A stretch of DNA of 34,937 nt, from assembly GCA_023253495.1 (NCBI GenBank), contig JALRGF010000172.1, forward strand, positions 1 through 34,937. The letters are read 5' to 3'. Below are positions 3,056-34,649 of this stretch, piece by piece. Positions within the stretch are counted from its first letter, which is position 1; every line of letters starts with the position of its first letter. A model generated the notes under the pieces. That model made no database searches, was not told the origin of the DNA, and was given only the letters and a program-made list of their open reading frames with translations. Source of the DNA: Verrucomicrobiales bacterium (GTDB lineage: Bacteria > Verrucomicrobiota > Verrucomicrobiia > Verrucomicrobiales > V1-33). Made by a program: the position numbers and the translations under genes.

Positions 3056-4057
3056 TCAGCGCTCGTGCAATGACGCTGCCAGCTCCGCGGGCGTCAGGGT
3101 GGCCGTGCCGATCTTGCCTACCACCACGCCGCTGGCATGGTTGGAAATTTCCGCGGCCTCCTCCGGCGTCGCCCCCGCGCTCAAGGCCAGCGTGAACAGG
3201 GCGATCGCCGTGTCCCCCGCCCCCGAAACATCAAAAACTTCCCGGGCCAGCGCCGGCAACCGGAACGGCGGCGCCTCCTTCCGCAGCAGCGCCATGCCCT
3301 GCTCGCTGAGCGTGATCAGCAGCATCTCGGTGTCCCATTGCCGGAAAAGACGTTGGCCCAGCTCATCCAGCGCCGCGTCCAGCGTGGCCGGTGAGCGCAG
3401 ACCGCTCTCGACCAGCCCGGCCGCCTGAAACGCCTCGGACCGGTTCGGCTTGATCGCCGTGGCGCCCCGCCAGTGCAGCGGGTTGTTCGGGTTCGGATCG
3501 ACGGTCACAATCAGGCCGGTCCCGCGCGTCCGCTCCGCCAGCCCGTCGACCAGCGCCTGGGTCAGAAACCCTTTGCCATAGTCTTCCAGAATCACCGCAT
3601 CCACCTCCGGCAGCCGGCTCTCCAGAAACGCCAGCACCCGCGCCCGCATCGCCTCGCCAAGGGCCCGCCGGGTTTCCCGGTCGATCCGCACCACCTGCTG
3701 GTTGCGCGCCACGATCCGCGTCTTCACGATCGTCTGGTACTCCGGATCGCGCATCAACCCGGCCGTGTCGATCCCGCTCGCCGCCAGCAGCCCGTCCAAC
3801 TCGCCGGCAAACACATCGTCACCGACCAGACCCGCCACACTGACCTGCCCGCAGAAGGGCAGGAGGTTGCGCGCCACGTTGGCCGCCCCCCCGGGATACG
3901 CATCTTCGCTCTTCACCTCCACCACCGGTACCGGCGCCTCCGGCGAAATCCGCGAAACCGCCCCCCAGATAAACCGGTCCAGCATCACATCCCCCACCAC
4001 CAGCAGCTTCTTCTGGCGAAAGGCGGCAAGCAGCGAATCCAAACGGGCGGTATCCAT
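3056..4057 (-). CDS. rfaE1: D-glycero-beta-D-manno-heptose-7-phosphate kinase (RfaE domain I / HldA; PfkB family, kinase domain only)
   Basis: LLVVGDVMLDRFIWGAVSRISPEAPVPVVEVKSEDAYPGGAANVARN closely parallels the E. coli HldE N-terminus (VMVVGDVMLDRYWYG..SRISPEAPVPVV...GGAANVA). The PfkB motif DVSGAGDT is near the C-terminus. I placed the start at the ATG at 4057 (MDTARLDSLL); the track ORF extends to 4114. Confidence 0.85.
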   Translation of the reverse strand: MDTARLDSLLAAFRQKKLLVVGDVMLDRFIWGAVSRISPEAPVPVVEVKSEDAYPGGAANVARNLLPFCGQVSVAGLVGDDVFAGELDGLLAASGIDTAGLMRDPEYQTIVKTRIVARNQQVVRIDRETRRALGEAMRARVLAFLESRLPEVDAVILEDYGKGFLTQALVDGLAERTRGTGLIVTVDPNPNNPLHWRGATAIKPNRSEAFQAAGLVESGLRSPATLDAALDELGQRLFRQWDTEMLLITLSEQGMALLRKEAPPFRLPALAREVFDVSGAGDTAIALFTLALSAGATPEEAAEISNHASGVVVGKIGTATLTPAELAASLHER

Positions 4058-4229: not shown

Positions 4230-5039
4230 TTGCCTGTGAAAACGTTGATCTCCTTCTTCCGGCTCGCCCTCGCCCTCGCCCTCTCCTCCGCCGCTCCCGG
4301 TTCCGTCTCGGCAGCCGAGGCTGTCGCCGGTTTTCCGGGGGAGGTCATTGAGGAGGTGATCGTGCCGGTGCCGAGCGAGATCTTCACCGTCATGGACAAA
4401 CTCGGCCGTCCGGACTGGCGGTCGGAACTGCGCACCACCAAAACCCCGACGTTCTCCAACCGGGTCGACGTCGCCCTCCTGCTCGGCAGCGTGGTCGCCG
4501 AAGGTTTTATCGCCGTGGAAGCCGAGGACAAGGACGCCGTCGAACGCATCGGCAAGGACGTCCTCCGGCTCTCGGAATCGCTCGGCCTCAAGGAAACCGT
4601 GCTGCCGCACACCAACAGCATCCTCGAAGCCTCCAAAAACAACCACTGGGAAATCGTCCGCGTCGAACTCGACAAAACCCAGAAAACCGTGCGCGACACC
4701 ATGGAGCAACGGCGCGACACCGAACTCGGCCAGTGCGTCAGCCTCGGCGGCTGGCTGCGCGGCACCGATGCCGTGACCAGCCTGATCGCGAAGAATTATT
4801 CGTCCGACGCCGCCGAACTTCTCAACCAGCCGGACATCATCCGCCATTTCCAGAAGGAGCTGAAAAAGCTCGCCGCCCGCCATGGCAAGCTCAAGGCACT
4901 GCTCGACGGCCTGGAAACCATCGCCGGCGTCATCGGCGATGGCGACGAAACTCCCGGCGCCGCCGGCGTCCAGACCATCCATGACACCGCCGTCCGGCTG
5001 GTCCGATCCATCACCACCAGCCCCCCTGCCACCCGCTAG
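4230..5039 (+). CDS. Secreted hypothetical protein
   Basis: 269-aa ORF with a clear signal peptide (KTLISFFRLALALALSSAAPGSVSA) and balanced, charged, helical-looking composition, unlike the R/P/G-rich antisense ORF 4095..5078. The start is uncertain (TTG 4230 or GTG 4236). Confidence 0.7.
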   Translation: MPVKTLISFFRLALALALSSAAPGSVSAAEAVAGFPGEVIEEVIVPVPSEIFTVMDKLGRPDWRSELRTTKTPTFSNRVDVALLLGSVVAEGFIAVEAEDKDAVERIGKDVLRLSESLGLKETVLPHTNSILEASKNNHWEIVRVELDKTQKTVRDTMEQRRDTELGQCVSLGGWLRGTDAVTSLIAKNYSSDAAELLNQPDIIRHFQKELKKLAARHGKLKALLDGLETIAGVIGDGDETPGAAGVQTIHDTAVRLVRSITTSPPATR

Positions 5040-10686: not shown

Positions 10687-11103
10687 ATGCTCCCCTTTCG
10701 TCTCCAGCTTGATTCCGGGGTGCCGGCGTACCGGCAGGTGATGGAGCAGGTGCGATTTTTTGTGGCGGCCGGACTGCTGCGTGGCGGCGACCAAGTCCCG
10801 AGCCTGCGCGAGCTGGCGCGCACGCTGGCGGTGACCCCGGGCACGATCGTGAAGGCGTATTCGGAGCTGGAGCATGCGGGAGTGATCGAAAGCCGGCACG
10901 GCCGCGGGTATTTCATCGCCGAGGGCCCGGCACGCCTGTCGCGAGCGGAGCGCGAAGCCGCGGTGCGCGACGCCGCGCGGCGGCTATGGCTGACCGCCAG
11001 CCAGGTCGGCCTCTCGCCGGAACGCACCGAGGAACTCGTCGCCGAGGCACGCGCCGCCGCCGCCACCTCGCCGACCGTTTTCAACTGCCCTCCGACCACC
11101 TAA
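10687..11103 (+). CDS. GntR-family transcriptional regulator, short YtrA-like type
   Basis: 138 aa. A winged HTH is present (VPSLRELARTLAVTPGTIVKAYSELEHAGVIESRHGRGYFI). The short helical C-terminus is typical of the YtrA subfamily. Confidence 0.9.
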   Translation: MLPFRLQLDSGVPAYRQVMEQVRFFVAAGLLRGGDQVPSLRELARTLAVTPGTIVKAYSELEHAGVIESRHGRGYFIAEGPARLSRAEREAAVRDAARRLWLTASQVGLSPERTEELVAEARAAAATSPTVFNCPPTT

Positions 11104-12008
11104 AAATACCCTTCCTTCTTCCGGTCCTCCATGGCCGTTTCGGAGACCTTGTCGTCGGCACGCGTGCCGCGTTCGGTCACCCGCGCCGCCGCCACTTCCG
11201 CAATGATCTCATCAATCGTGCCGGCCGCCGACTCCCAGGCACCGGTGCACGTCACGTCCCCGATCGTGCGGAAACGGATCGTCCGCTCCTCCACCACCTC
11301 ACCGTCCATCGGCCGGGCAAAACCGGTCTCCGCATCCAGCCACGCCCCATCCCGCTTGAAGACCCTCCGACGATGCGAAAAATACAGGCTCGGCAACGGA
11401 ATCGACTGCTCCTTGATATACATCCACACGTCCATCTCCGTCCAGTTGCTCAACGGAAACACCCGGAAATGCTCGCCGGTATGATGCCGGCCATTGAAAA
11501 TATTCCATAATTCGGGCCGCTGGTTCTTCGGATCCCACTGCCCGAATTCATTCCGGTGCGAAAAAAACCGCTCCTTCGCCCGCGCTTTCTCCTCGTCCCG
11601 CCGCCCACCCCCGAGCAACGCGTCAAATTTCCCCTGCTCAATCGTCTCCAGCAGCGTGATCGACTGCAACCGGTTCCGCGACGCCTTCGGTCCCGTCTCG
11701 TCCCGCGCCGTGCCGCGACGGATACTGTCCTCCACATGCCCGACCACCAGTCGCGCCCCCAGCATCTGCACAAACTCGTCCCGATACGTCAGCGTCTCCG
11801 GAAAATTGTGCCCCGTGTCCACATGCACCAAGGCAAACGGCACCTTCGCAGGCCAAAACGCCTTCCGCGCCAGCCACGCCATCACAATCGAATCCTTCCC
11901 CCCGGAAAACAACAACCCCGGATTCTGAAACTGCGCCGCTGTCTCCCGAAGCACAAAAATCGCCTCGGCCTCCAACTGCTCCAAATGACTCAACGTGTAC
12001 GAATTCAT
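11100..12008 (-). CDS. cysD: Sulfate adenylyltransferase subunit 2
   Basis: MNSYTLSHLEQLEAEAIFVLRE..., the PP-loop FSGGKDSIVM, HVDTGHNFPETL, FSHRNEFGQWDPKNQRPELWN and the C-terminal MEDRKKEGYF are all typical of CysD. Confidence 0.95.
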   Translation of the reverse strand: MNSYTLSHLEQLEAEAIFVLRETAAQFQNPGLLFSGGKDSIVMAWLARKAFWPAKVPFALVHVDTGHNFPETLTYRDEFVQMLGARLVVGHVEDSIRRGTARDETGPKASRNRLQSITLLETIEQGKFDALLGGGRRDEEKARAKERFFSHRNEFGQWDPKNQRPELWNIFNGRHHTGEHFRVFPLSNWTEMDVWMYIKEQSIPLPSLYFSHRRRVFKRDGAWLDAETGFARPMDGEVVEERTIRFRTIGDVTCTGAWESAAGTIDEIIAEVAAARVTERGTRADDKVSETAMEDRKKEGYF

Positions 12009-12096: not shown

Positions 12097-12345
12097 TCCC
12101 TATTGTCTATCGGCATAGTCGTGTTTTTGGGCACTCACAGCGTACCTGTCCCGTTGCGACTTCCCATTGTCTATAGGAATAGTCGTGTTTTTGGGCACAC
12201 ACAGCGTACCTGTCCCGTTGCGAATCGTACTGCGTACCTGTCCCGTTTTGCAGTATGGCTCGCACAGAGTACCTGTCCCGTTGCCAGCGGGGCCGGTCCA
12301 GCGTACCTGTCCCGTTGCCACCGGCGGCACCGTGTCCCTGTCCGG
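12097..12345 (+). repeat. Intergenic repeat array 1: two 64-bp tandem units, then 3-4 short units, each carrying the core (CA)CAGCGTACCTGTCCCGTTGC
   Basis: Cores at 12136-12159, 12200-12223, 12232-12247, 12263-12286 and 12298-12320, plus a degenerate copy around 12328-12345. All are in the same orientation. The 64-bp units 12097-12160 and 12161-12224 are about 58/64 identical. Confidence 0.9.
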
Positions 12346-12366: not shown

Positions 12367-13701
12367 ATGATTTGTATGAACCTGTTTTTCCCTTCTTTTT
12401 GCCGGTCGTTATGGACGGGCCTGCTGGTGTGGGTGAGTGCCGCGGGGGGGCTTGCGGGTGCGGAGGGCGGGCGATGGCAGGTGCCGTTGGCGGGCAACGG
12501 GTATCAGACGGCGCGGGCGGACGGCGGGCGTGAGGGCATGGGGCGGCGCGGCGGACGCTGGGCGGATCCGGAGACGGTGTGGTCGATTTTTTTCCGGGTT
12601 GATCGGCCGGCGGTGCTGGATCTGGGGTTGAAGGTGAGTGTTCCGGAGGGGGAGTCGGTGATCCGGGCTACGGTGGGGGGCCGGGTTTTTGAGGTGGTGG
12701 CCCGGGGTGCCGAGGAGGCGGAGGTGTCGTTGGGTCGGGTGGAGGCGGCGGCGGCCGGTTATGTGCGGGTGGAGGTGCAGGGGGTGCGTCGATCCGGTCC
12801 GGAATTCGGGCGGATTTCGGACTTGGTGGTGACCTCGCCGACTCCGGGCCTAGAACCGGTTTTTGTGAAGACCAACGAAGGCAATATGTTTTACTGGGGG
12901 CGGCGGGGTCCGTCGGTGCATCTTGGCTACGAGGTGCCGCGGGGGGTGGACATCGAGTATGCTTACAGCGAGGTGACGGTGCCTGAGGGTGGGGATCCGA
13001 TCGGGTCGTTTTACATGGCCAATGGTTTTGGCGAAGGGTATTTCGGGATTCAGACGAAGAGTCCGACCGAGCGCTGGGTGCTTTTTTCGGTATGGAGTCC
13101 GTTTGCCACCGACGACCCGGAAAAGATCCCGGAATCCGACCGGGTGGTATTGCTGGGCAAGGGGGAGGGGGTGCAGGCCGGCGAATTCGGCAACGAGGGC
13201 AGCGGGGGCCAGAGTTATCTCGTGTATCCGTGGAAGACGGGCATGACCTACCGGTTCCTGAACACGGCAAAGCCGGATGGTCGGGGAAACACGGAATATG
13301 CCGCCTGGATCGCGGAAGCCCCGGACGGCGAGTGGCGGCTGATCGCCCGGTTCCGCCGGCCGAAGACGGACAAGCACCTGACCGGCTTCCATTCGTTCCT
13401 TGAGAATTTCTCAGCCGAAAACGGCCATCGGAGCCGCACCAGCCGCCACGGCAACCAGTGGGTCCGCGACACCGGCGGGCGCTGGCACGAAGTCACCCGG
13501 GCGCGCTTCACCGGCGATGCCACCGCCGGCGGCCGCCACCGTCTGGATTATGCCGGCGGCGTGCAGAACGGCGGATTCTTCCTGAAAAACGGCGGGTTTT
13601 TTGATGAGCCGGTACCGCTCGACAGCCGGTTCGAGCGCGCGTCCGAGCCGGACCGCCCACCGGTCATCGATTTGGAAAAGCTGGAGGTGATGGGGCGCTG
13701 A
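12367..13701 (+). CDS. Secreted DUF5077/DUF3472-like domain protein
   Basis: 444 aa with a signal-like N-terminus. Segments GEGYFGIQTKSPTERWVLFSVWSP, GNEGSGGQSYLVYPWKTGMTYRF and GFHSFLENF match my memory of DUF3472 proteins. The CDS is confident; the family assignment is moderate. An alternative ATG lies at 12376. Confidence 0.8.
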   Translation: MICMNLFFPSFCRSLWTGLLVWVSAAGGLAGAEGGRWQVPLAGNGYQTARADGGREGMGRRGGRWADPETVWSIFFRVDRPAVLDLGLKVSVPEGESVIRATVGGRVFEVVARGAEEAEVSLGRVEAAAAGYVRVEVQGVRRSGPEFGRISDLVVTSPTPGLEPVFVKTNEGNMFYWGRRGPSVHLGYEVPRGVDIEYAYSEVTVPEGGDPIGSFYMANGFGEGYFGIQTKSPTERWVLFSVWSPFATDDPEKIPESDRVVLLGKGEGVQAGEFGNEGSGGQSYLVYPWKTGMTYRFLNTAKPDGRGNTEYAAWIAEAPDGEWRLIARFRRPKTDKHLTGFHSFLENFSAENGHRSRTSRHGNQWVRDTGGRWHEVTRARFTGDATAGGRHRLDYAGGVQNGGFFLKNGGFFDEPVPLDSRFERASEPDRPPVIDLEKLEVMGR

Positions 13702-21203: not shown

Positions 21204-22208
21204 ATGCCCCGCCCCGTCACCCTGTTCACCGGCCAGTGGGCCGACCTGCCATTCACCACCATCCTGCAGAAGGCCAAAGCCTTCGGCTATGACGGCGTGG
21301 AGCTCGCCTGCTGGGGCGACCACTTCGAGGTCGCCAAGGCCGACCAGGCGTACTGCGACGCCAAACGCCGGGCACTCGACGAGGCTGGCATGAAATGTTT
21401 CGCCATTTCCACCCACCTTGTCGGTCAGGCGGTGTGCGACAACATCGACGAACGCCACAAGACGATCCTGCCCGACTACGTGTACGGTGACGGAAAGCCC
21501 GAGGGCGTGCGCCAGCGCGCCGCCGAAGAATTGATCCGCACCGCCCAGGCCGCCGCCCGCTTCGGTGTCAAAGTCGTCAACGGATTCACCGGCTCCAGTA
21601 TCTGGCACCTCGTGTATTCCTTTCCGCCGGTCCTGCCGGGGCAGATCGACGCCGGCTTCAAAGACTTCGCCGCCCGCTTCAAGCCGATCCTCGATGAATT
21701 CCAGAAACTGGGACTGAAATACGCTCTGGAAGTCCATCCGACCGAAATCGCCTTCGACATCGCCTCGGCCGAACGCGCCCTGCAGGCGCTCGACTACCAC
21801 CCCGCCTTCGGCTTCAACTACGACCCGTCCCACTTCGGCTACCAGGGAGTCGATTACGTCGGGTTCATCCGCAAATTCCATGATCGCATTTTCCATGTGC
21901 ACATGAAGGACGTCGCCTGGAGCGACCGGCCGACCGAGGCCGGCGTCTTCGGCGGGCACGTCGATTTCCACCAGCCGAACCGCTTCTGGGACTTCAAGTC
22001 CGTCGGCCGCGGCAACATCAATTTCGAAAAAATCATCCGCGCCCTGAACGACATCGGCTACGCCGGGCCGCTCAGCGTCGAGTGGGAGGACGGCGGCATG
22101 GACCGCGAGTTCGGGGCGGCCGAGAGCTGCGCCTTCTGCAAGCGCATCGATTTCCCGTCGAGCCAGATCGTGTTTGACGCGCAATTCGACAAGTCCCGTC
22201 AGGCGTGA
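21204..22208 (+). CDS. Sugar phosphate isomerase/epimerase (xylose isomerase-like TIM barrel)
   Basis: [56 protein letters not shown] and PLSVEWED follow the AP_endonuc_2/TIM-barrel pattern. The start is set at the ATG at 21204 ([12 protein letters not shown]). Confidence 0.9.
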
Positions 22209-22278
22209 CGCCTGGTCCGGCGGGTGTTCCGCCATTTGGGGATTGTGCGGGGATGGGGTAAACTGCCATGGTCACCCG

Positions 22279-25200
22279 ATGAACGCGCATCCCCCTGCCC
22301 CCAACCCCTCCCGTGGCGCCCGGAGCCGGGCGCTCCTGACTCCGGTCACACTCGCCCTGTGCGTCCTGAGCCTGCCGATGGCGTCCGGGCAATCCGTGGT
22401 CATCTCGGAATTCATGGCCATCAACACCGCCTCAAAAAAACCGGGCGGCCTCGCCATGGTGGATGAAGACAAGAGCTACGAAGACTGGCTCGAACTGCAC
22501 AACCCGGGAACCACCACCGTCAATCTGGGCGGATGGTCGCTCACCGACGACCCCGGCAACCTCCGCCGCTGGCCGATCCCCCCGGTGGACCTGGCTCCGG
22601 GTCAGTTTCTCGTCATCTGGTGCTCGCAGAAAAACCGCACCCAGCCGGCCGCGCCGCTGCACACGAATTTCAAACTCTCGGGAGTCGGCGACTACCTCGC
22701 CCTGGTGCGCCGCGACGGCACCACCATCGCCCATGAATACGCGCCGACCTACCCGCCCCAGACGACCGACGTGAGCTTCGGCCTGAATGGCGCCGTGGCC
22801 GAGGAAACACTCGTCGGACCGGGCAGCGAAATCAGTTTCCTCGCTCCCGCCGACAGCACCGCCGAGGCCGCCTGGTACCAGGGCGGTTTCACTCCCGACG
22901 CCGCCTGGGGCCGCGTGCGCCTGCAGACAAAGGACACCGCCGCCCCCAATACCACCGTCCCCCGCGTCCAGACAGTCGGCCTCGGCTACGCCACTTCCGC
23001 CTCTTCCCCCCTCAACCGCCACCTCGCCGACGGCGGCAATGTGCGCGCCCTGCTCCACGATACCGGCCGCACCTCGCTCTGGATGCGGACCACCTTCACC
23101 GTCGCCAACCCCGCCGCCCACAGCAACCTGCGGCTGCGCCTGAAATACGACGACGGCTTCGTCGCCTACCTCAACGGCGTGCCCGTCGCCGCCGCCAACG
23201 CCCCCGAGGCCCGGCCCGTTCCCTGGAACGAACCGGCGACCGCCACCACCACCGACACCGCCGCCACCGCCTTCAAGGAGTTCGCCCTCGGCGCCTCGGC
23301 CCAGCTGGCCGCCGGCGAAAACGTGCTCGCCATCCACGGCCTCAATACCGCCGTGACCGCCAGCAGCGACGCCCTCTGGGTGCCGGAACTGGTCTCGGAC
23401 ACCGCGCTCCCGCCCGGCACCCAGCCGGTCTATTTCACCTCACCCACCCCCGGCCTGCCGAACGGCACGGGGTCCACCGTCATCCCGCCGCTGGTCTTCG
23501 ACCTCACGGAAAACCCGCCCCCACCCGCCCCCGGTCCCTTCTCCCTGCCGGTCACCGCCCGCGTCGTCGCCACCCGCAACCCGGTCGCCGGCGCCACGCT
23601 GTACTGGCGCCGCATGTTCGACCCCGAAATGTCGGCACCGATGCGCGACGACGGCCAGGACGGGGACGCGGTCGCCGGCGACGGCATCTTCTCCGGACGG
23701 ATCAGCGGTGTGTCCCTGGCGGCCGGCGAAATGGTGCGCTGGCGCGTCACCGCCCATGACACCGCGAACCGGCTCGGCCGCGCCCCGGCCCACAACGAGC
23801 CGAACGACTCCCAGGTCTACCACGGCACGGTGGCCGAAAACCCCGCGCTCCAGTCGTCGCGCCTGCCCGTCCTCCACTGGTTCATGGCCCCCGGCGTCAA
23901 CCCGGACACCACCACCCGCGTCCGCATCAGCCTGGCTTACGGCGGCGAGTTCTACGACAACGTCGGGGCCGACGTGCACGGCCAGAGCACCAGCGGCTTT
24001 CCGAAAAAAAGCTACAACCTGGATTTTCCCGCTGACCACGCCTTCCGCTACGACCCGGCCCGGCGGCGGGTCGCCGACATCAAGCTGCTGACCAACTACG
24101 CCGACAAGACCAAGGTCCACAACACCGTGGCCTATCAGCTGCTGCGCGACGCCCAGGTGGCCGCCCACTTCGCCTTCCCGGTCCGCGTCCAGCGCAACAG
24201 CCAGTTTTTTGCCGTCGCCGAATTCGTCGAGGACGCCGACGAACTGTACCTCGAACGCGCCGGGCTCAACCCCGAGGGCGCGCTCTACAAAATGTACAAC
24301 TACGTCGTCCCCAACCTCTCGCCCGGGGGCAGCGGCTACGAGAAAAAAACCCGGCGCTCCGAAAACGCCGCCGACCTCAACGCGCTCGCCACCGGCCTCG
24401 CCCGCTCCGGTGAAACCCTGCTCCAGTACGGCTTCGACAACGTCAACCTGCCCGCCACCGTCAATCATCTCGCCGCCTACACCATGACCAGCGCCACCGA
24501 CGTGGCGCACAAGAATTATTACTGCTTCCGCGACACCACCGGCACCGGGGAATGGCAACTGCTGCCCTGGGACCTCGACCTCTCGTTCGGCCGCGTCTGG
24601 ACCGGCGATTTCAATTATTTCAACGACCGCGTCCACGCCACCAATGCCGTCAGCCCGAGCGGAGCCGCCGGCAACGGCAACAAATTCTGGGATTTCGGGT
24701 TCCGCGGGTCGCCGGCCATCCAGCAGATGTACCTGCGGCGGCTGCGCACGCTGCGCGACCAGTTTCTGGCGCCGCCGGGAGGCACCGACGACTGGCACGT
24801 TCAGCAGTTCAGCCGCTGGCTGCCGATCATTGATGCGACCGGGGACGCCACCTCGGACGCCGCCCTCGACCTCGCCAAATGGAAACCGGCCGCCTGGAAA
24901 CTCTCCGGCGCACCGAACAGCGTCTCGCCCTTCGCCGGATACACCATGGCCCAGGAAATCGGTCGGCGGCTCAGCGAGTACATCCCGCAACGGCGAACCT
25001 TCCTCTACTCCGGAGCCACCAACGCCGCCTTTCCTCCCGCCCAGCCGGCCGCACCATCGATGACCTTCGGGCCGATGGACGTCAACCCGGGCCTGCCCGA
25101 CAGCCAGAACCAGGAGTACTTGACCATCGTCAATCCCAACCCGTACGCCGTCGAACTGACCGGCTGGACGATCACCGGCGGCGTGAACTTCACCTTCCCT

Positions 25201-26379
25201 CCGGCCACCGTGATCCCGTCAGCCACCCTCGCCACCGCCGCCGACCCGGACCGCAACAAACTGTTCGTCGCCCGCCACGCCCCGGGTTTCCGCAGCCGCG
25301 CCACCAGCCCGAAAGCCGGAGAAAAACGTTTTGTCGTCTCCGGATACCAGGGGCAGCTCTCCGCCCGCGGCGAAGCTCTCGAACTGCGCAACAGCGCGGG
25401 CACCGTGGTCGCCACCACCCGCTGGGACCCCGCTCCCACCCCGGCCCAGCAATGGCTGCGCGTCGCCGAAATCCACTACGCCCCGGCCGAACCCACCGCC
25501 GCCGAAGCCAGCGCCCTGCCCGGCGTCGTCGCCTCCGACTTCGAATTTCTCGAATTGGTCAACACCGGCCCGGTCACCCTCGACCTCAGCGGCGCCCGCT
25601 TCTCCGAAGCTATCGACATCACCCTGCCGGCCGCCACCACCCTGGCCCCGGGAGCCCGCCTCGTCGTCGCCGCCCGCACGGCCGCCCTGGCCCTGCGCCA
25701 TCCGGGCGCCGGCCCGGTGGTCGGCGACTGGTGGGGACGTCTGAACAACGACGGGGAACGGCTCCAGCTGGTCGACTCCTCCGGCGAAACAGTGCTCGAT
25801 TTCAGCTTCAATGACACCTGGCACCCGTGGACCGAAGCCCACGGCCACTCGCTGGTCATGCTCGACGAGGCCGGCACGCCGTTCAGCGAATGGGGCGACC
25901 GGAACCGCTGGGGGATCAGTGCGCCGCCCGGCGGCTCGCCCGGCACCACCGCCCCCGTCGGCCACGCCTATTCCTCCCTGCTCAACCGCTTCAACGCCGC
26001 CGATCGCGAAAACCCCGCCGTCAGCGGCCCGACGGCCAATCCGGATCAGGACGACCTCGTCAATTTCGCCGAATACTGCCTGGGCCAGGACCCGCTCTCC
26101 AGCCAGCGCGCCACCGACTGGCTCCAGGCCGGCCTGCACCTCGTGGAAGGACAGCCCCACCTCGCCGTCACCTACCGCCGCACCCAAAACCTGCTCGACG
26201 CCGACATCACCACCGAAACCAGCCCGGACGGTGTGACTTGGTCTGCTTCCCGGATGGTCCCCATCGAGCCGCCCACCGCCCATGGCGACGGCACGGAAAC
26301 CGTCCGCCTGCGCCAGGAATCACCCGTCACCACCACCGGCACCGGCCTCGTCCGCCTGCGGTTCACGCCGCGGCCGTAA
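22279..26379 (+). CDS. Giant secreted multidomain protein: lamin-tail domain (LTD) + CotH kinase-family domain + further LTDs + Ca-binding-like motif
   Basis: Signal peptide (LLTPVTLALCVLSLPMASG). The first LTD is VVISEFMA...EDWLELHNPGTTTVNLGGWSLTDD. The CotH core is FPKKSYNLDF...KLLTNYADKTKVHNTVAYQL...VRVQRNSQFFAVAEFVEDADELYLERAGL..GALYK. Later LTDs are EYLTIVNPNPYAVELTGWTITGG and EFLELVNTGPVTLDLSGARF. NPDQDDLVNFAEYCLGQDP is TSP3/dockerin-like. The start is set at the ATG at 22279. Confidence 0.9.
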   Translation: MNAHPPAPNPSRGARSRALLTPVTLALCVLSLPMASGQSVVISEFMAINTASKKPGGLAMVDEDKSYEDWLELHNPGTTTVNLGGWSLTDDPGNLRRWPIPPVDLAPGQFLVIWCSQKNRTQPAAPLHTNFKLSGVGDYLALVRRDGTTIAHEYAPTYPPQTTDVSFGLNGAVAEETLVGPGSEISFLAPADSTAEAAWYQGGFTPDAAWGRVRLQTKDTAAPNTTVPRVQTVGLGYATSASSPLNRHLADGGNVRALLHDTGRTSLWMRTTFTVANPAAHSNLRLRLKYDDGFVAYLNGVPVAAANAPEARPVPWNEPATATTTDTAATAFKEFALGASAQLAAGENVLAIHGLNTAVTASSDALWVPELVSDTALPPGTQPVYFTSPTPGLPNGTGSTVIPPLVFDLTENPPPPAPGPFSLPVTARVVATRNPVAGATLYWRRMFDPEMSAPMRDDGQDGDAVAGDGIFSGRISGVSLAAGEMVRWRVTAHDTANRLGRAPAHNEPNDSQVYHGTVAENPALQSSRLPVLHWFMAPGVNPDTTTRVRISLAYGGEFYDNVGADVHGQSTSGFPKKSYNLDFPADHAFRYDPARRRVADIKLLTNYADKTKVHNTVAYQLLRDAQVAAHFAFPVRVQRNSQFFAVAEFVEDADELYLERAGLNPEGALYKMYNYVVPNLSPGGSGYEKKTRRSENAADLNALATGLARSGETLLQYGFDNVNLPATVNHLAAYTMTSATDVAHKNYYCFRDTTGTGEWQLLPWDLDLSFGRVWTGDFNYFNDRVHATNAVSPSGAAGNGNKFWDFGFRGSPAIQQMYLRRLRTLRDQFLAPPGGTDDWHVQQFSRWLPIIDATGDATSDAALDLAKWKPAAWKLSGAPNSVSPFAGYTMAQEIGRRLSEYIPQRRTFLYSGATNAAFPPAQPAAPSMTFGPMDVNPGLPDSQNQEYLTIVNPNPYAVELTGWTITGGVNFTFPPATVIPSATLATAADPDRNKLFVARHAPGFRSRATSPKAGEKRFVVSGYQGQLSARGEALELRNSAGTVVATTRWDPAPTPAQQWLRVAEIHYAPAEPTAAEASALPGVVASDFEFLELVNTGPVTLDLSGARFSEAIDITLPAATTLAPGARLVVAARTAALALRHPGAGPVVGDWWGRLNNDGERLQLVDSSGETVLDFSFNDTWHPWTEAHGHSLVMLDEAGTPFSEWGDRNRWGISAPPGGSPGTTAPVGHAYSSLLNRFNAADRENPAVSGPTANPDQDDLVNFAEYCLGQDPLSSQRATDWLQAGLHLVEGQPHLAVTYRRTQNLLDADITTETSPDGVTWSASRMVPIEPPTAHGDGTETVRLRQESPVTTTGTGLVRLRFTPRP

Positions 26380-32691: not shown

Positions 32692-34125
32692 ATGACGAAC
32701 GCACTCGACGGCCTGTGGGAAAAAATCTGTGACACCGTGCGGCTCGGGATGACCCCCGACGCCTTCCAGCGATGGTTCGCTCCAGCGCGTCTCATGGAAG
32801 CAAATGAGGAGTCCCTCACCCTCGCCGTCCCCAACAGCATTCAGCAGCTGTGGATCGAGTCGAACTACGCCTCCCTGCTCCAGGACGCCATCATCGTCAC
32901 CTTGGGCGACCGCCGGACCGTGAAATTCCGCGTCGAAATGAACGGAGCCGGCACTCCCCGCCCGAATGCCGCCGGCCACGGGGGGCACGCCGTGGACGTC
33001 AACGGCACTCCGGGCAGCCGGAGCGCGCGCCCGTCCGATCCCGCACAGGCCTCACCCGCCCCGCGCCCCACAGGCACCCCCGCAGCCGCCGGCAGCGAAA
33101 CCACCGGCGGCTTCAACCCGAAATACGTCTTCTCCAACTTCGTCGTCGGCACCAGCAACCAGTTCGCCCACGCCGCCGCCCACGCCGTGGCCGAAAACCC
33201 GGCCCGCATCTACAACCCCCTGTTCATCCACGGCGGGGTCGGCCTGGGCAAAACCCACCTCATGCAGGCGATCGGCCACCACATCCTCGCCCACCGCAAA
33301 AAAGCACGCGTCCTCTACCTCTCCAGCGAACAGTTCACCAATGAGTTCATCGACGCCATCCAGCAAGGCACCCTGACCAAATTCCGCCGCCGCTACCGGC
33401 AGGCCGACGTGCTCCTCATCGACGACGTCCAGTTCTTCGCCGGCAAGGAACGTTCCCAGGACGAGTTTTTCCACACCTTCAACGCCCTGTTCGACGGCCA
33501 CCGGCAGATCGTCATGACCAGCGACCGCCCGCCCAGCGAAATGCAGAAACTGGAGGCACGGCTGGTCTCACGCTTCGAATGGGGCATCGCCGCCGAAATG
33601 CAGGTCCCCGATGTCGAAACCCGCACCGCCATCCTGCGCCACAAAATGTCCCAGCTCCAGGTCACCCTGCCGGATGACGTGGTCCGCTTCATCGCCGAAC
33701 GCATCAGCAACAACGTGCGCCGGCTCGAGGGCAGCCTGCTCCGGCTCGCCAGCTTCGCCTCGCTCTCCAACGAAAAACTCACCCAGCCAAGGGTCGAGGA
33801 CCTGCTGCGCGACCTGCTCCAGGAGGACGCCCACAACCAGGTCACCATCGACAAAATCCAGCGGGTGGTCGCCGAACACTTCGACGTGCGCCTGGCCGAC
33901 ATGACCAGCAAACGCCGCCCCGCCTGCATCGCCTTTCCCCGCCAGATCGCCATGCACCTCGCCCGCCACCTGACCCGCGCCTCGTTCTCCGAAATCGGCA
34001 TGGCCTTCGGCGGTCGCGACCACGGCACCGTCATGCACGCCTGCAAATTGATCACCGGCCGCATGAACGACGACCCCAAGCTGCGCAGCTCCATCCTCGT
34101 GCTCGAATCCCGGCTCAAAGGGTGA
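32692..34125 (+). CDS. dnaA: Chromosomal replication initiator protein DnaA
   Basis: Domain I (LWEKICDTVRLGMTPDAFQRWF), a P/A-rich linker, AAA+ Walker A GGVGLGKTHLMQAIGH, Walker B LLIDDVQF, and the domain IV signature FGGRDHGTVMHACKLI. The start is set at the ATG at 32692 (MTNALDGLW). Confidence 0.95.
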   Translation: MTNALDGLWEKICDTVRLGMTPDAFQRWFAPARLMEANEESLTLAVPNSIQQLWIESNYASLLQDAIIVTLGDRRTVKFRVEMNGAGTPRPNAAGHGGHAVDVNGTPGSRSARPSDPAQASPAPRPTGTPAAAGSETTGGFNPKYVFSNFVVGTSNQFAHAAAHAVAENPARIYNPLFIHGGVGLGKTHLMQAIGHHILAHRKKARVLYLSSEQFTNEFIDAIQQGTLTKFRRRYRQADVLLIDDVQFFAGKERSQDEFFHTFNALFDGHRQIVMTSDRPPSEMQKLEARLVSRFEWGIAAEMQVPDVETRTAILRHKMSQLQVTLPDDVVRFIAERISNNVRRLEGSLLRLASFASLSNEKLTQPRVEDLLRDLLQEDAHNQVTIDKIQRVVAEHFDVRLADMTSKRRPACIAFPRQIAMHLARHLTRASFSEIGMAFGGRDHGTVMHACKLITGRMNDDPKLRSSILVLESRLKG

Positions 34126-34165
34126 GGTCCCGAGACAGCGTACCGGACCACCTGTAGCATTTCGC

Positions 34166-34187
34166 AATATGCTCATATGAGCATATT
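34166..34187. promoter_or_regulatory. Perfect 22-bp AT-rich palindrome AATATGCTCATATGAGCATATT, with an imperfect second copy at 34245-34266
   Basis: The reverse complement was checked by hand and is identical. The second copy AATATGTTCATATGCGCATATC lies 79 bp downstream within the next repeat unit. Confidence 0.85.
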
Positions 34188-34368
34188 CCAATAGCGCACT
34201 TGGTGGCGGGGGCCACAGAGTACCTGTCCAGCGATGGCATCCGCAATATGTTCATATGCGCATATCCCAATAGCGGGCCACAGCGTACCTGTCCAGCGAT
34301 GGGGAGGTCACAGCGTACCTGTCCAGCGATGGCATTCGACTGGCTGGGGGCCCACAGGGTACCTGTCC

Positions 34369-34414
34369 GGATGTTGTGCATGTGTTCGTTTGGATGTTGT
34401 ACATGTGTTCGTTT
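34369..34414 (+). repeat. Tandem AT-rich 23-mer x2 (GGATGTTGTGCATGTGTTCGTTT / GGATGTTGTACATGTGTTCGTTT)
   Basis: Read directly at 34369-34391 and 34392-34414, with one mismatch. Confidence 0.9.
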
Positions 34415-34649
34415 GAACGCATATTGATATTCGCCATGGCGACGCACCGACAGCGTGCCTGTCCGAATGCCGCTCCCAAGTGGCAACGCCTTGCCCCGAT
34501 CCCACCCCGCCGTCTCTTCCGGCCCCGTCCGAGGCGCTTGCGTACGGGCAATTCCCGCTTGCGCCGCCGGCCATGGCCGGGACAGTCGTGCTGCCGGAGG
34601 GGTATGGAGTCCCTCCATCCTTCCGCGAGGATCCGCCCCGTTTCCCGTC

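Follow-up and report, generated by a model that had tools for sequence, protein, structure and literature searches.

The stretch analyzed here, hereafter called the window, is a whole contig of 34,937 bp from a Verrucomicrobial metagenome-assembled genome (MAG) with a GC content of approximately 66%, and it contains two intergenic arrays of a short repeat (12 units in 35 kb), the second of which adjoins dnaA. Array 1 fills the divergent spacer between cysD (11100–12008, − strand) and a DUF5077/DUF3472 gene (12376–13701, + strand). Array 2 opens 9 nt past the dnaA stop codon and extends to approximately 190 nt before the next open reading frame (ORF) on the same strand. The repeat is represented by the 16-mer CACAGCGTACCTGTCC, which occurs together with its variants (≤3 mismatches) in 12 copies over the whole window, all of them on the + strand and all confined to the two arrays (12136–12343 and 34134–34464). 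Shuffled sequences preserving the dinucleotide composition gave 0.25 matches on average and 2 at maximum, and none of 100 shuffles reached 12, which bears out the claim of the initial annotation that the sharing of this 16-mer by two loci is not a matter of chance.

Both arrays exhibit the same layout, in which long units composed of an AT-rich element and the core come first and core-only units come after. This order (two long units, then core-only units) had been noticed in the initial annotation, as had the two exact, two one-mismatch, and one two-mismatch copies of array 2, the core spacings of 65, 30, 44, and 96 bp between them, and the differing 3′ flanks of the two arrays; all were recovered here, together with a sixth, more degenerate copy (Table 1). 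The 3′ flank is AGCGATGG on three units of array 2 and CGTTGC in array 1. The long unit of array 1 consists of the AT-rich part ATTGTCTAT(C/A)GG(C/A)ATAGTCGTGTTTTTGGGCAC followed by the core. In array 2, the first AT-rich element includes a perfect 22-bp palindrome, AATATGCTCATATGAGCATATT, at 34166–34187, a degenerate second copy of which lies at 34245–34265; the palindrome was duplicated along with the core units. An example unit of the repeat family reads TCACAGCGTACCTGTCCAGCGATGG.

Table 1. Positions of the repeat arrays, their companion elements, and adjoining features in the window.
Feature	Position	Strand	Description
Array 1	12136–12343	+	Six cores at 12136, 12200, 12228, 12263, 12297, and 12328; 3′ flank CGTTGC
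Two long units of array 1	12099–12223	+	61 nt each (12099–12159 and 12163–12223), 93% identical
dnaA	32692–34125	+	Pfam DnaA_N, Bac_DnaA, and Bac_DnaA_C; 477-aa database protein P0001; context, outside the element
Insert carrying array 2	~34130–34490		Absent from the dnaA-downstream spacers of L122, L121, and L118 when aligned
Array 2, sixth, degenerate copy	34134–34149	+	GACAGCGTACCGGACC, 3 mismatches; 9 nt past the dnaA stop
AT-rich element, array 2 long unit 1	34163–34196		34 nt; the core comes after
Array 2, unit 1	34214–34229	+	Core CACAGAGTACCTGTCC, 1 mismatch; 3′ flank AGCGATGG; part of the first long unit
AT-rich element, second copy	34242–34275		34 nt, 91% identical to the first; palindrome degenerate
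Array 2, unit 2	34279–34294	+	Exact core; 3′ flank AGCGATGG
Array 2, unit 3	34309–34324	+	Exact core; 3′ flank AGCGATGG
Array 2, unit 4	34353–34368	+	CACAGGGTACCTGTCC, 1 mismatch
Two tandem 23-nt copies of GGATGTTGTGCATGTGTTCGTTT	34369–34414	+	Within the inserted segment; present in the window only among the fetched loci
Array 2, unit 5	34449–34464	+	Degenerate core GACAGCGTGCCTGTCC, 2 mismatches
Promoter-like element GGGCAATTCCCGCTTGCGCC	34547–34566	+	Conserved upstream of the gene after dnaA; homology with the relatives resumes there

We consider, at a probability of roughly 0.8, that the two arrays represent orphan clusters belonging to a family of short repeats of the repetitive extragenic palindrome (REP)/BIME type, also termed terminal inverted repeats (TIRs), and that this family has as its cognate enzyme a TIRYT-type HUH Y1 transposase (RAYT-like, resembling subclasses 2.1/2.3). 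The link to this transposase is one of association, made through the enzyme gene in related contigs. When metagenomes were scanned for the variant specific to the window, two contigs of 63% GC (L128 and L133) were obtained, in which an ORF of 348/357 aa lies between a + array and a − array of window-type units. The same layout of + array, gene, and − array was found in L135, L136, L137, and L140, whose enzymes are 80–94% identical, so that flanking of a RAYT-like gene by repeats in inverted orientation is seen throughout these related contigs (L128, L133, L135/L136, L137, and L140). Segment 34308–34332 of the window matched the outermost upstream unit of the L140 transposase locus at 24 of 25 positions, and the array 2 unit at 34279 was identical (20/20) to a unit flanking the L128 transposase gene. 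Most contigs with this transposase family are just 1–2 kb long, which fits assembly breaks at the flanking repeat arrays.

The 348-aa ORF was matched by Pfam Y1_Tnp (E 1.8e-10) and by NCBIfam REP_Tyr_transpos, the REP-associated tyrosine transposase model, at 60 bits, which is under the cut-off of 80. Its motifs NHFH (residues 61–64), WE (156–157), and YIDLNP (177–182) are invariant or nearly so in 47 homologs. An AlphaFold model of the transposase was obtained with a pLDDT of 86.9, and its top match in the PDB was 4ER8, a complex of the E. coli RAYT with a REP hairpin (E 7.7e-6, target TM 0.75), followed by the TnpA folds of ISDra2 and IS608. This 4ER8 match was found by fold comparison alone, as a profile search of the transposase against PDB sequences gave no match. 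A helical C-terminal region is present in the model; no Pfam helix-turn-helix (HTH) match was obtained for the 348-aa protein, and the HTH matches of the Prevotella and Clostridiaceae homologs were sub-threshold only. The family comprises 1,401 clusters at E ≤1e-30 and is common in Verrucomicrobia. Many homologs are named “REP element-mobilizing transposase RayT” by JGI; some NCBI records call homologs “chemotaxis protein CheW”, which looks like a misannotation.

A homolog with 54% identity, located on L138, has a distinct though related repeat on both sides (...CTGTCACCTTATG / CGTCCCCTTATGC), which appears as GATAAATTGCCTGTCACCTTATGG upstream (2870–2960) and as CGTCCCCTTATGCATCC, on the opposite strand, downstream (4240–4360). 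A different repeat around a homolog of this identity is expected if repeat and enzyme co-evolve, and the differing L138 repeat looks like such a co-evolution. Repeats of the form GGGGACAG or GGGGTCAG surround the plasmid-borne homologs from Pseudomonas, Rhodospirillum, and Skermanella. On the P. aeruginosa plasmid NZ_CP116719.1, the homolog is flanked by AGTAGGGAAAATAAATCTGTCCCCTTTATT repeats (1340–1450 and 2195–2225 of the fetched locus), in which TCTGTCCCC occupies the loop of an AATAAA/TTTATT hairpin and the orientation relative to the gene is opposite to that of the Verrucomicrobial loci.

The invariant part of the units is GTACCTGTCC(CC), a block of 10–12 nt. A scan for two such blocks in the form GTACCTGTCC-N14-44-GTACCTGTCC, using one genome per species, returned more than 115 loci, compared with a few tens expected by chance as estimated from the database size. 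The lineages with the block include Actinomycetota, Bacillota, Bacteroidota, Binatia, Planctomycetota, Lentisphaerota, Verrucomicrobiota, and Pseudomonadota. Among the matches listed, single MAGs recurred, with 17 8-kb blocks for a Propionibacteriaceae MAG, 12 for a Binatia MAG, and 5 for a Lentisphaeria MAG. A Y1 transposase gene was located within 250 bp of the motif in 6 of approximately 127 motif-selected loci, including those of Prevotella, Eubacteriales, Clostridiaceae, and Alphaproteobacteria. In the scanned loci, the motif is mostly GTACCTGTCCCC (the 10-mer usually being extended by CC) and is placed between lineage-specific complementary arms, of which more than 30 stem types were recognized (e.g., TGAACCG/CGGTTCA, GAAACC/GGTTTC, CTGACAG/CTGTCAG, GGGACAAG/CTTGTCCC, and GCGATAGC/GCTATCGC). 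Rfam 15 gave no match at its gathering score in the window or in 17 motif-rich loci, and a full-text literature search for the 10-mer string returned primers only.

A stem of at least 5 contiguous Watson–Crick base pairs was formed by 28% of 107 units (one per lineage), compared with 5% (13% at maximum) when the 3′ flanks were permuted. A covariance model was constructed from eight hairpins, namely seven of other lineages and one unit of the L128 transposase locus whose loop matches the core of the window, and it found 134 additional units. When these were aligned, 85.5% of cells were paired compared with 46% after shuffling, and the covariation score was 0.906 compared with 0.219 for shuffled units and ≤0.23 when the partners were slid by 1–3 columns; as this alignment was fitted to the model, these figures lean towards structure. 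Of the ten best matches of the model in the window, nine were the window's own units, and the tenth (34123–34152, − strand) overlaps the degenerate copy opening array 2. Five array 1 units were matched with E values of 1.5e-5 to 0.014, array 2 unit 1 (34211–34239) with 5.4e-4, and array 2 unit 4 with 0.07.

When read as the reverse complement, the window units show (C/T)(G/T)GGACAG, which can be compared with the GGGGWSAS consensus of TIRs: the array 1 units (CGGGACAG) match at 7 of 8 positions, the array 2 units (CTGGACAG) at 6 of 8, and the units of other phyla (GGGGACAG, the reverse complement of which is CTGTCCCC) at all 8. As a tentative extension, which we hold with much less assurance than the assignment of the two arrays, GTACCTGTCC(CC), i.e., the GGGGWSAS block plus GTAC in a lineage-specific hairpin loop, may be the recognition element of a multi-phylum REP-like superfamily. 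The largest RAYT subclass (2.1/2.3, Group 1) would act as its partner, the element would be read from the loop instead of from a 5′ GTAG foot, and the window arrays would be orphan members. If true, the GTACCTGTCCCC block shown in the loop would define, across phyla, the DNA partner that the largest RAYT subclass has been missing. A conserved DNA block is now tied to the most widespread RAYT subclass, the DNA partner of which is poorly defined in the literature. Since it is usually shown in a covarying hairpin loop, the block offers a defined substrate for TIRYT biochemistry, and it is also a simple search pattern for annotating repeats that fragment metagenome assemblies.

Several observations weigh against the assignment of the arrays to such a transposase-linked family. 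No transposase gene or remnant was detected in the 34.9-kb window by tblastn or by a six-frame hmmsearch with a 47-sequence profile (best E 1.7). The window units as single-stranded DNA fold no better than shuffles (z −1.1 to +1.1), and stems of 4–6 bp occur in only some of them, with one 6-bp stem at 12228–12257. Both arrays are unidirectional, unlike the inverted doublets typical of REPIN/BIME, and no GTAG/GTGG foot is present in the units, which read ...CACAGC-GTAC-CTGTCC... with GTAC within the loop. The published accounts found give no experimental TIRYT activity on such repeats. In addition, contig L142 contains an ortholog of the DUF3472 gene (84% identical) with three related units, CATTTTACCTGTCCCTTTGT, CATTTT(A/G)CCTGTCCCTTTGT, just upstream (1380–1740) and oriented as in array 1. 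The units there point to a shared insertion of old date or to a hot spot for insertion, and array 1 could accordingly have been long retained, possibly with a host regulatory role. L142 also holds a partial duplication of the start of this ortholog (ttttATGAACAT).

By analogy with E. coli TnpA_REP and the TnpA of IS200/IS605, the enzyme would recognize a folded, single-stranded form of the unit, such as may arise on the lagging-strand template, and would then cut and rejoin DNA, seeding units at new extragenic sites, where local tandem duplication may expand the seeded unit together with its adjoining sequence. These steps of recognition, cleavage, seeding, and expansion are put forward as a plausible course. 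Expansion of the units with adjacent sequence would account for the 3′ flank (CGTTGC or AGCGATGG) and AT-rich companion that are particular to each array, and for the position of long units ahead of short ones. The 34-nt AT-rich elements and the 22-bp palindrome of array 2 occurred in no other fetched locus, including the transposase loci, and the AT-rich part of array 1 was likewise found in the window only among all fetched loci; these companions are therefore not part of the mobile unit. The 34-nt element of array 2 is probably local sequence co-duplicated with the core, and the palindrome AATATGCTCATATGAGCATATT could be an operator for a dimeric regulator or merely a co-amplified spacer. 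Long satellites with a 15-nt period, composed of the same block, were observed in the metagenome contigs L123, L130, and L132 and in L075 (960–1040), with G(T/G/A)ACCTGTCC(A/G)GAGC in 12 to 18 or more copies and repeated CCTGTCCCCGGATTA as examples. The core can evidently seed microsatellite-like expansions.

The location of array 2 raises the question of whether it is tied to dnaA, for which the initial annotation had suggested initiator or iteron-type sites. The arrays would then serve replication control, either as DnaA-box clusters (oriC, datA/DARS-like) or as initiator iterons, and such a role would agree with the abutment of one array on dnaA and with the AT-rich palindromes and tandem repeats that share the same spacer. 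CTGTCCA can also be likened, at 6 of 9 positions, to part of the actinobacterial box TTGTCCACA. We compared the window with the relatives L118–L122, whose DnaA is 78–88% identical (approximately 74 kb of sequence in all, including two near-duplicate loci). These relatives retain the gene order metG-dnaA-unknown-leuD-like; in them the spacer downstream of dnaA is 116–223 bp compared with 524 bp in the window, and GTACCTGTCC gave no match at ≤1 mismatch throughout their approximately 74 kb. The shorter spacers, which lack the motif, identify array 2 as a lineage-specific insert of approximately 360 bp. Alignment of the dnaA-downstream regions had been proposed in the initial annotation as a check on the initiator idea; the absence of the motif in all relatives examined counts against it. 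In L122, the closest relative (DnaA 88% identical), the dnaA-downstream spacer contains five tandem GGCTCCCACCCC copies (3745–3810) instead of an array.

DnaA boxes of the TTATCCACA type are not enriched in the window, where 2 were found at ≤1 mismatch compared with 1.7 expected, and none lies in the spacer. In L118 (DnaA 78% identical; 1–21000), the strongly positive GC skew (+0.1 to +0.3) does not reverse over the 10 kb flanking dnaA on each side, and hence oriC is not at dnaA there. The skew of the window (1–34000) is negative throughout on the dnaA coding strand, opposite to that of L118, which suggests an inversion relative to the direction of replication and an oriC that does not adjoin dnaA in this group. 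The conserved block is far longer than a DnaA box and flanks transposase genes elsewhere, and the GGGG[AT][CG]A[CG] consensus is unlike DnaA boxes (Quentin 2018, PMC6006769). The arrays are similar to DnaA-box clusters (oriC, datA, DARS) and plasmid iterons in being direct short repeats near dnaA with a second cluster elsewhere; they differ in that their units have no DnaA-box match, are not conserved in relatives, and are linked to a transposase gene. A function in replication control is hence extremely improbable, and the 16-base motif, found by dnaA and a second time at a distance of 22 kb, is most likely not a replication signal.

As to the further proposal of the initial annotation, a common binding factor or a propagating element, the evidence favors both together, through the units around a RAYT/TIRYT-type gene and the REP-like hairpins in many phyla. 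The part that tied the arrays to dnaA as initiator sites lacks support, and the family of dispersed repeats that includes the core has no relation to either of the two loci. On the reading of the arrays as orphan repeat clusters, the nearness of array 2 to dnaA is incidental, the element having landed in a tolerant spacer ahead of the promoter-like element that precedes the following gene. The repeats beside dnaA are thus unfit for placing oriC or for inferring regulation by DnaA, and a tempting lead is removed. The arrays look like an ordinary, little-described selfish or domesticated repeat.

A host function of the arrays was considered as an alternative. A promoter-like element with the consensus GGCAA(A/T)xCCxxCTTGC(G/A)CC was located approximately 90–110 nt 5′ of the gene after dnaA in 4 of 4 lineages (the window, L122, L121, and L118), and it is probably a promoter or regulatory site of that gene. 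Array 2 lies upstream of this element and is accompanied by the perfect palindrome; array 1 fills a divergent promoter region, and a related array precedes the DUF3472 ortholog of L142. Together with the direct repeats and weak hairpins of the window lineage, this would be compatible with clusters of binding sites for a host transcription factor or nucleoid-associated protein, which, with no transposase involved, would regulate cysD, the DUF3472 gene, and the gene for the exported protein that follows dnaA. We regard this as unlikely, because the same units flank the transposase gene in inverted orientation in six related contigs, the two loci of the window have no common functional theme, and the relatives have no units beside dnaA. 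Furthermore, the invariant block is common to REP-like hairpins of several phyla, whose covarying stems indicate a single-strand structure rather than a duplex operator. Such host binding is not exclusive of a repeat origin, as exaptation of the repeat is possible.

An action of the units mainly as RNA was also considered, in which hairpin arrays stabilize or terminate the 3′ end of the dnaA mRNA and sit in the 5′ untranslated region of the DUF3472 gene, as proposed for many REPs. Array 2 follows the dnaA stop by 9 nt in the same orientation, array 1 reads in the sense direction immediately 5′ of the DUF3472 gene, and many REPs are located downstream of coding regions and plausibly transcribed (Di Nocera 2013, PMC3733652). 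The absence of an Rfam family match, the folding of the window units at the level of shuffles, and the occurrence of units in both orientations relative to genes in other genomes speak against it; such a role would moreover be secondary, leaving the origin of the units and the transposase link unexplained. It is therefore judged slightly less probable still than binding by a host factor.

Other candidates were dropped. GTCACAGCG at 34306 equals the MtrA motif of M. tuberculosis, and ATTGTCTATAG in array 1 resembles the nic site of R388; they were set aside as coincidences because spacing, taxon, and cross-lineage conservation misfit. Sigma-54 and ECF promoter readings of the flanks were discarded since the consensus spacing does not fit, and CRISPR and type III toxin-antitoxin repeat arrays were ruled out by unit length, spacing, and the lack of adjacent genes. 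The two 23-nt tandem copies (34369–34414) slightly resemble the region 5′ of the transposase genes (TTGACA...GTTTTT..GAAC). Segment 34369–34440, i.e., the tandem and the bases after it, was rejected as a relic of a transposase gene promoter/start, as its local alignment score was 24 compared with a mean of 19.8 and a maximum of 27 for shuffles. A 13-nt inverted repeat, CACTTGGTGGCGG / CCGCTCCCAAGTG (7 bp perfect; 34197–34209 and 34470–34482), brackets the core-bearing part of array 2, and it may delimit the inserted segment or be fortuitous. Elsewhere in the window, a 1401-aa ORF (22174–26379) with three Lamin Tail Domains and a CotH kinase domain bears no relation to the repeats, and no tRNAs were found in the window.

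Among the known systems, the subterminal hairpins of IS200/IS605 share with the present family the enzyme superfamily and the presumed recognition of folded single-stranded DNA. The repeats described here differ from them in that they are not the ends of a transposase-carrying insertion sequence, many copies lack an accompanying gene, and additional domains are present in the enzyme. Canonical REP/BIME/REPIN-RAYT systems of E. coli, Pseudomonas, and Stenotrophomonas (Nunvar 2010; Bertels & Rainey 2011; Messing 2012, 4ER8; Corneloup 2021, PMC8266576) are closer, as they also consist of short, clustered extragenic repeats that flank a single Y1 HUH transposase gene (the REPtron layout) and co-evolve with it, and the predicted fold of the enzyme is closest to 4ER8. 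Unlike these, the present family is without the 5′ GT[AG]G foot and has its conserved nucleotides in the loop, not in the hairpin foot, and the window units are weak palindromes arranged head-to-tail instead of inverted doublets.

The closest likeness is to the TIRtron/TIRYT repeats. Di Nocera 2013 (PMC3733652) described RAYT-like “TIRYT” genes flanked by inverted repeats (TIRs) with GGGGWSAS, some of which are moderately abundant genomic families occurring in dimers or clusters. According to Quentin 2018 (PMC6006769), most TIRYTs belong to TnpA_Y1 subclass 2.1 (Group 1 of Bertels), subclasses 2.1 and 2.3 have the motifs NH[YF]H, W[EQ], and Y[IV]xLNP and the consensus GGGG[AT][CG]A[CG], and they are without REP-like sequences found. 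For Group 1 genes, flanking 16-mers with only approximately 12 occurrences per replicon were reported (Bertels 2017, PMC5581495). The present family agrees with these systems (Di Nocera 2013; subclasses 2.1/2.3; Group 1 RAYTs) in that a RAYT-like Y1 gene is flanked by inverted repeats bearing GGGGWSAS, that the repeats probably also occur elsewhere in the genome as singles, dimers, or clusters at low to moderate copy number, and that NHFH, WE, and YIDLNP correspond to the published motifs. It differs in that each end is an array of 3–4 short units instead of one long TIR, that the conserved block is longer (GTACCTGTCC) and placed in a hairpin loop in many lineages, and that the Verrucomicrobial enzyme of 348 aa has an insertion of approximately 55 aa between the HUH and W motifs, a feature of subclass 2.3, and no detectable HTH Pfam domain. 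Judged from its sequence, the window feature falls outside the canonical REP definition, for want of a GT[AG]G foot, and within that of TIRYT repeats, with an imperfect match of 6–7 of 8 positions to GGGGWSAS.

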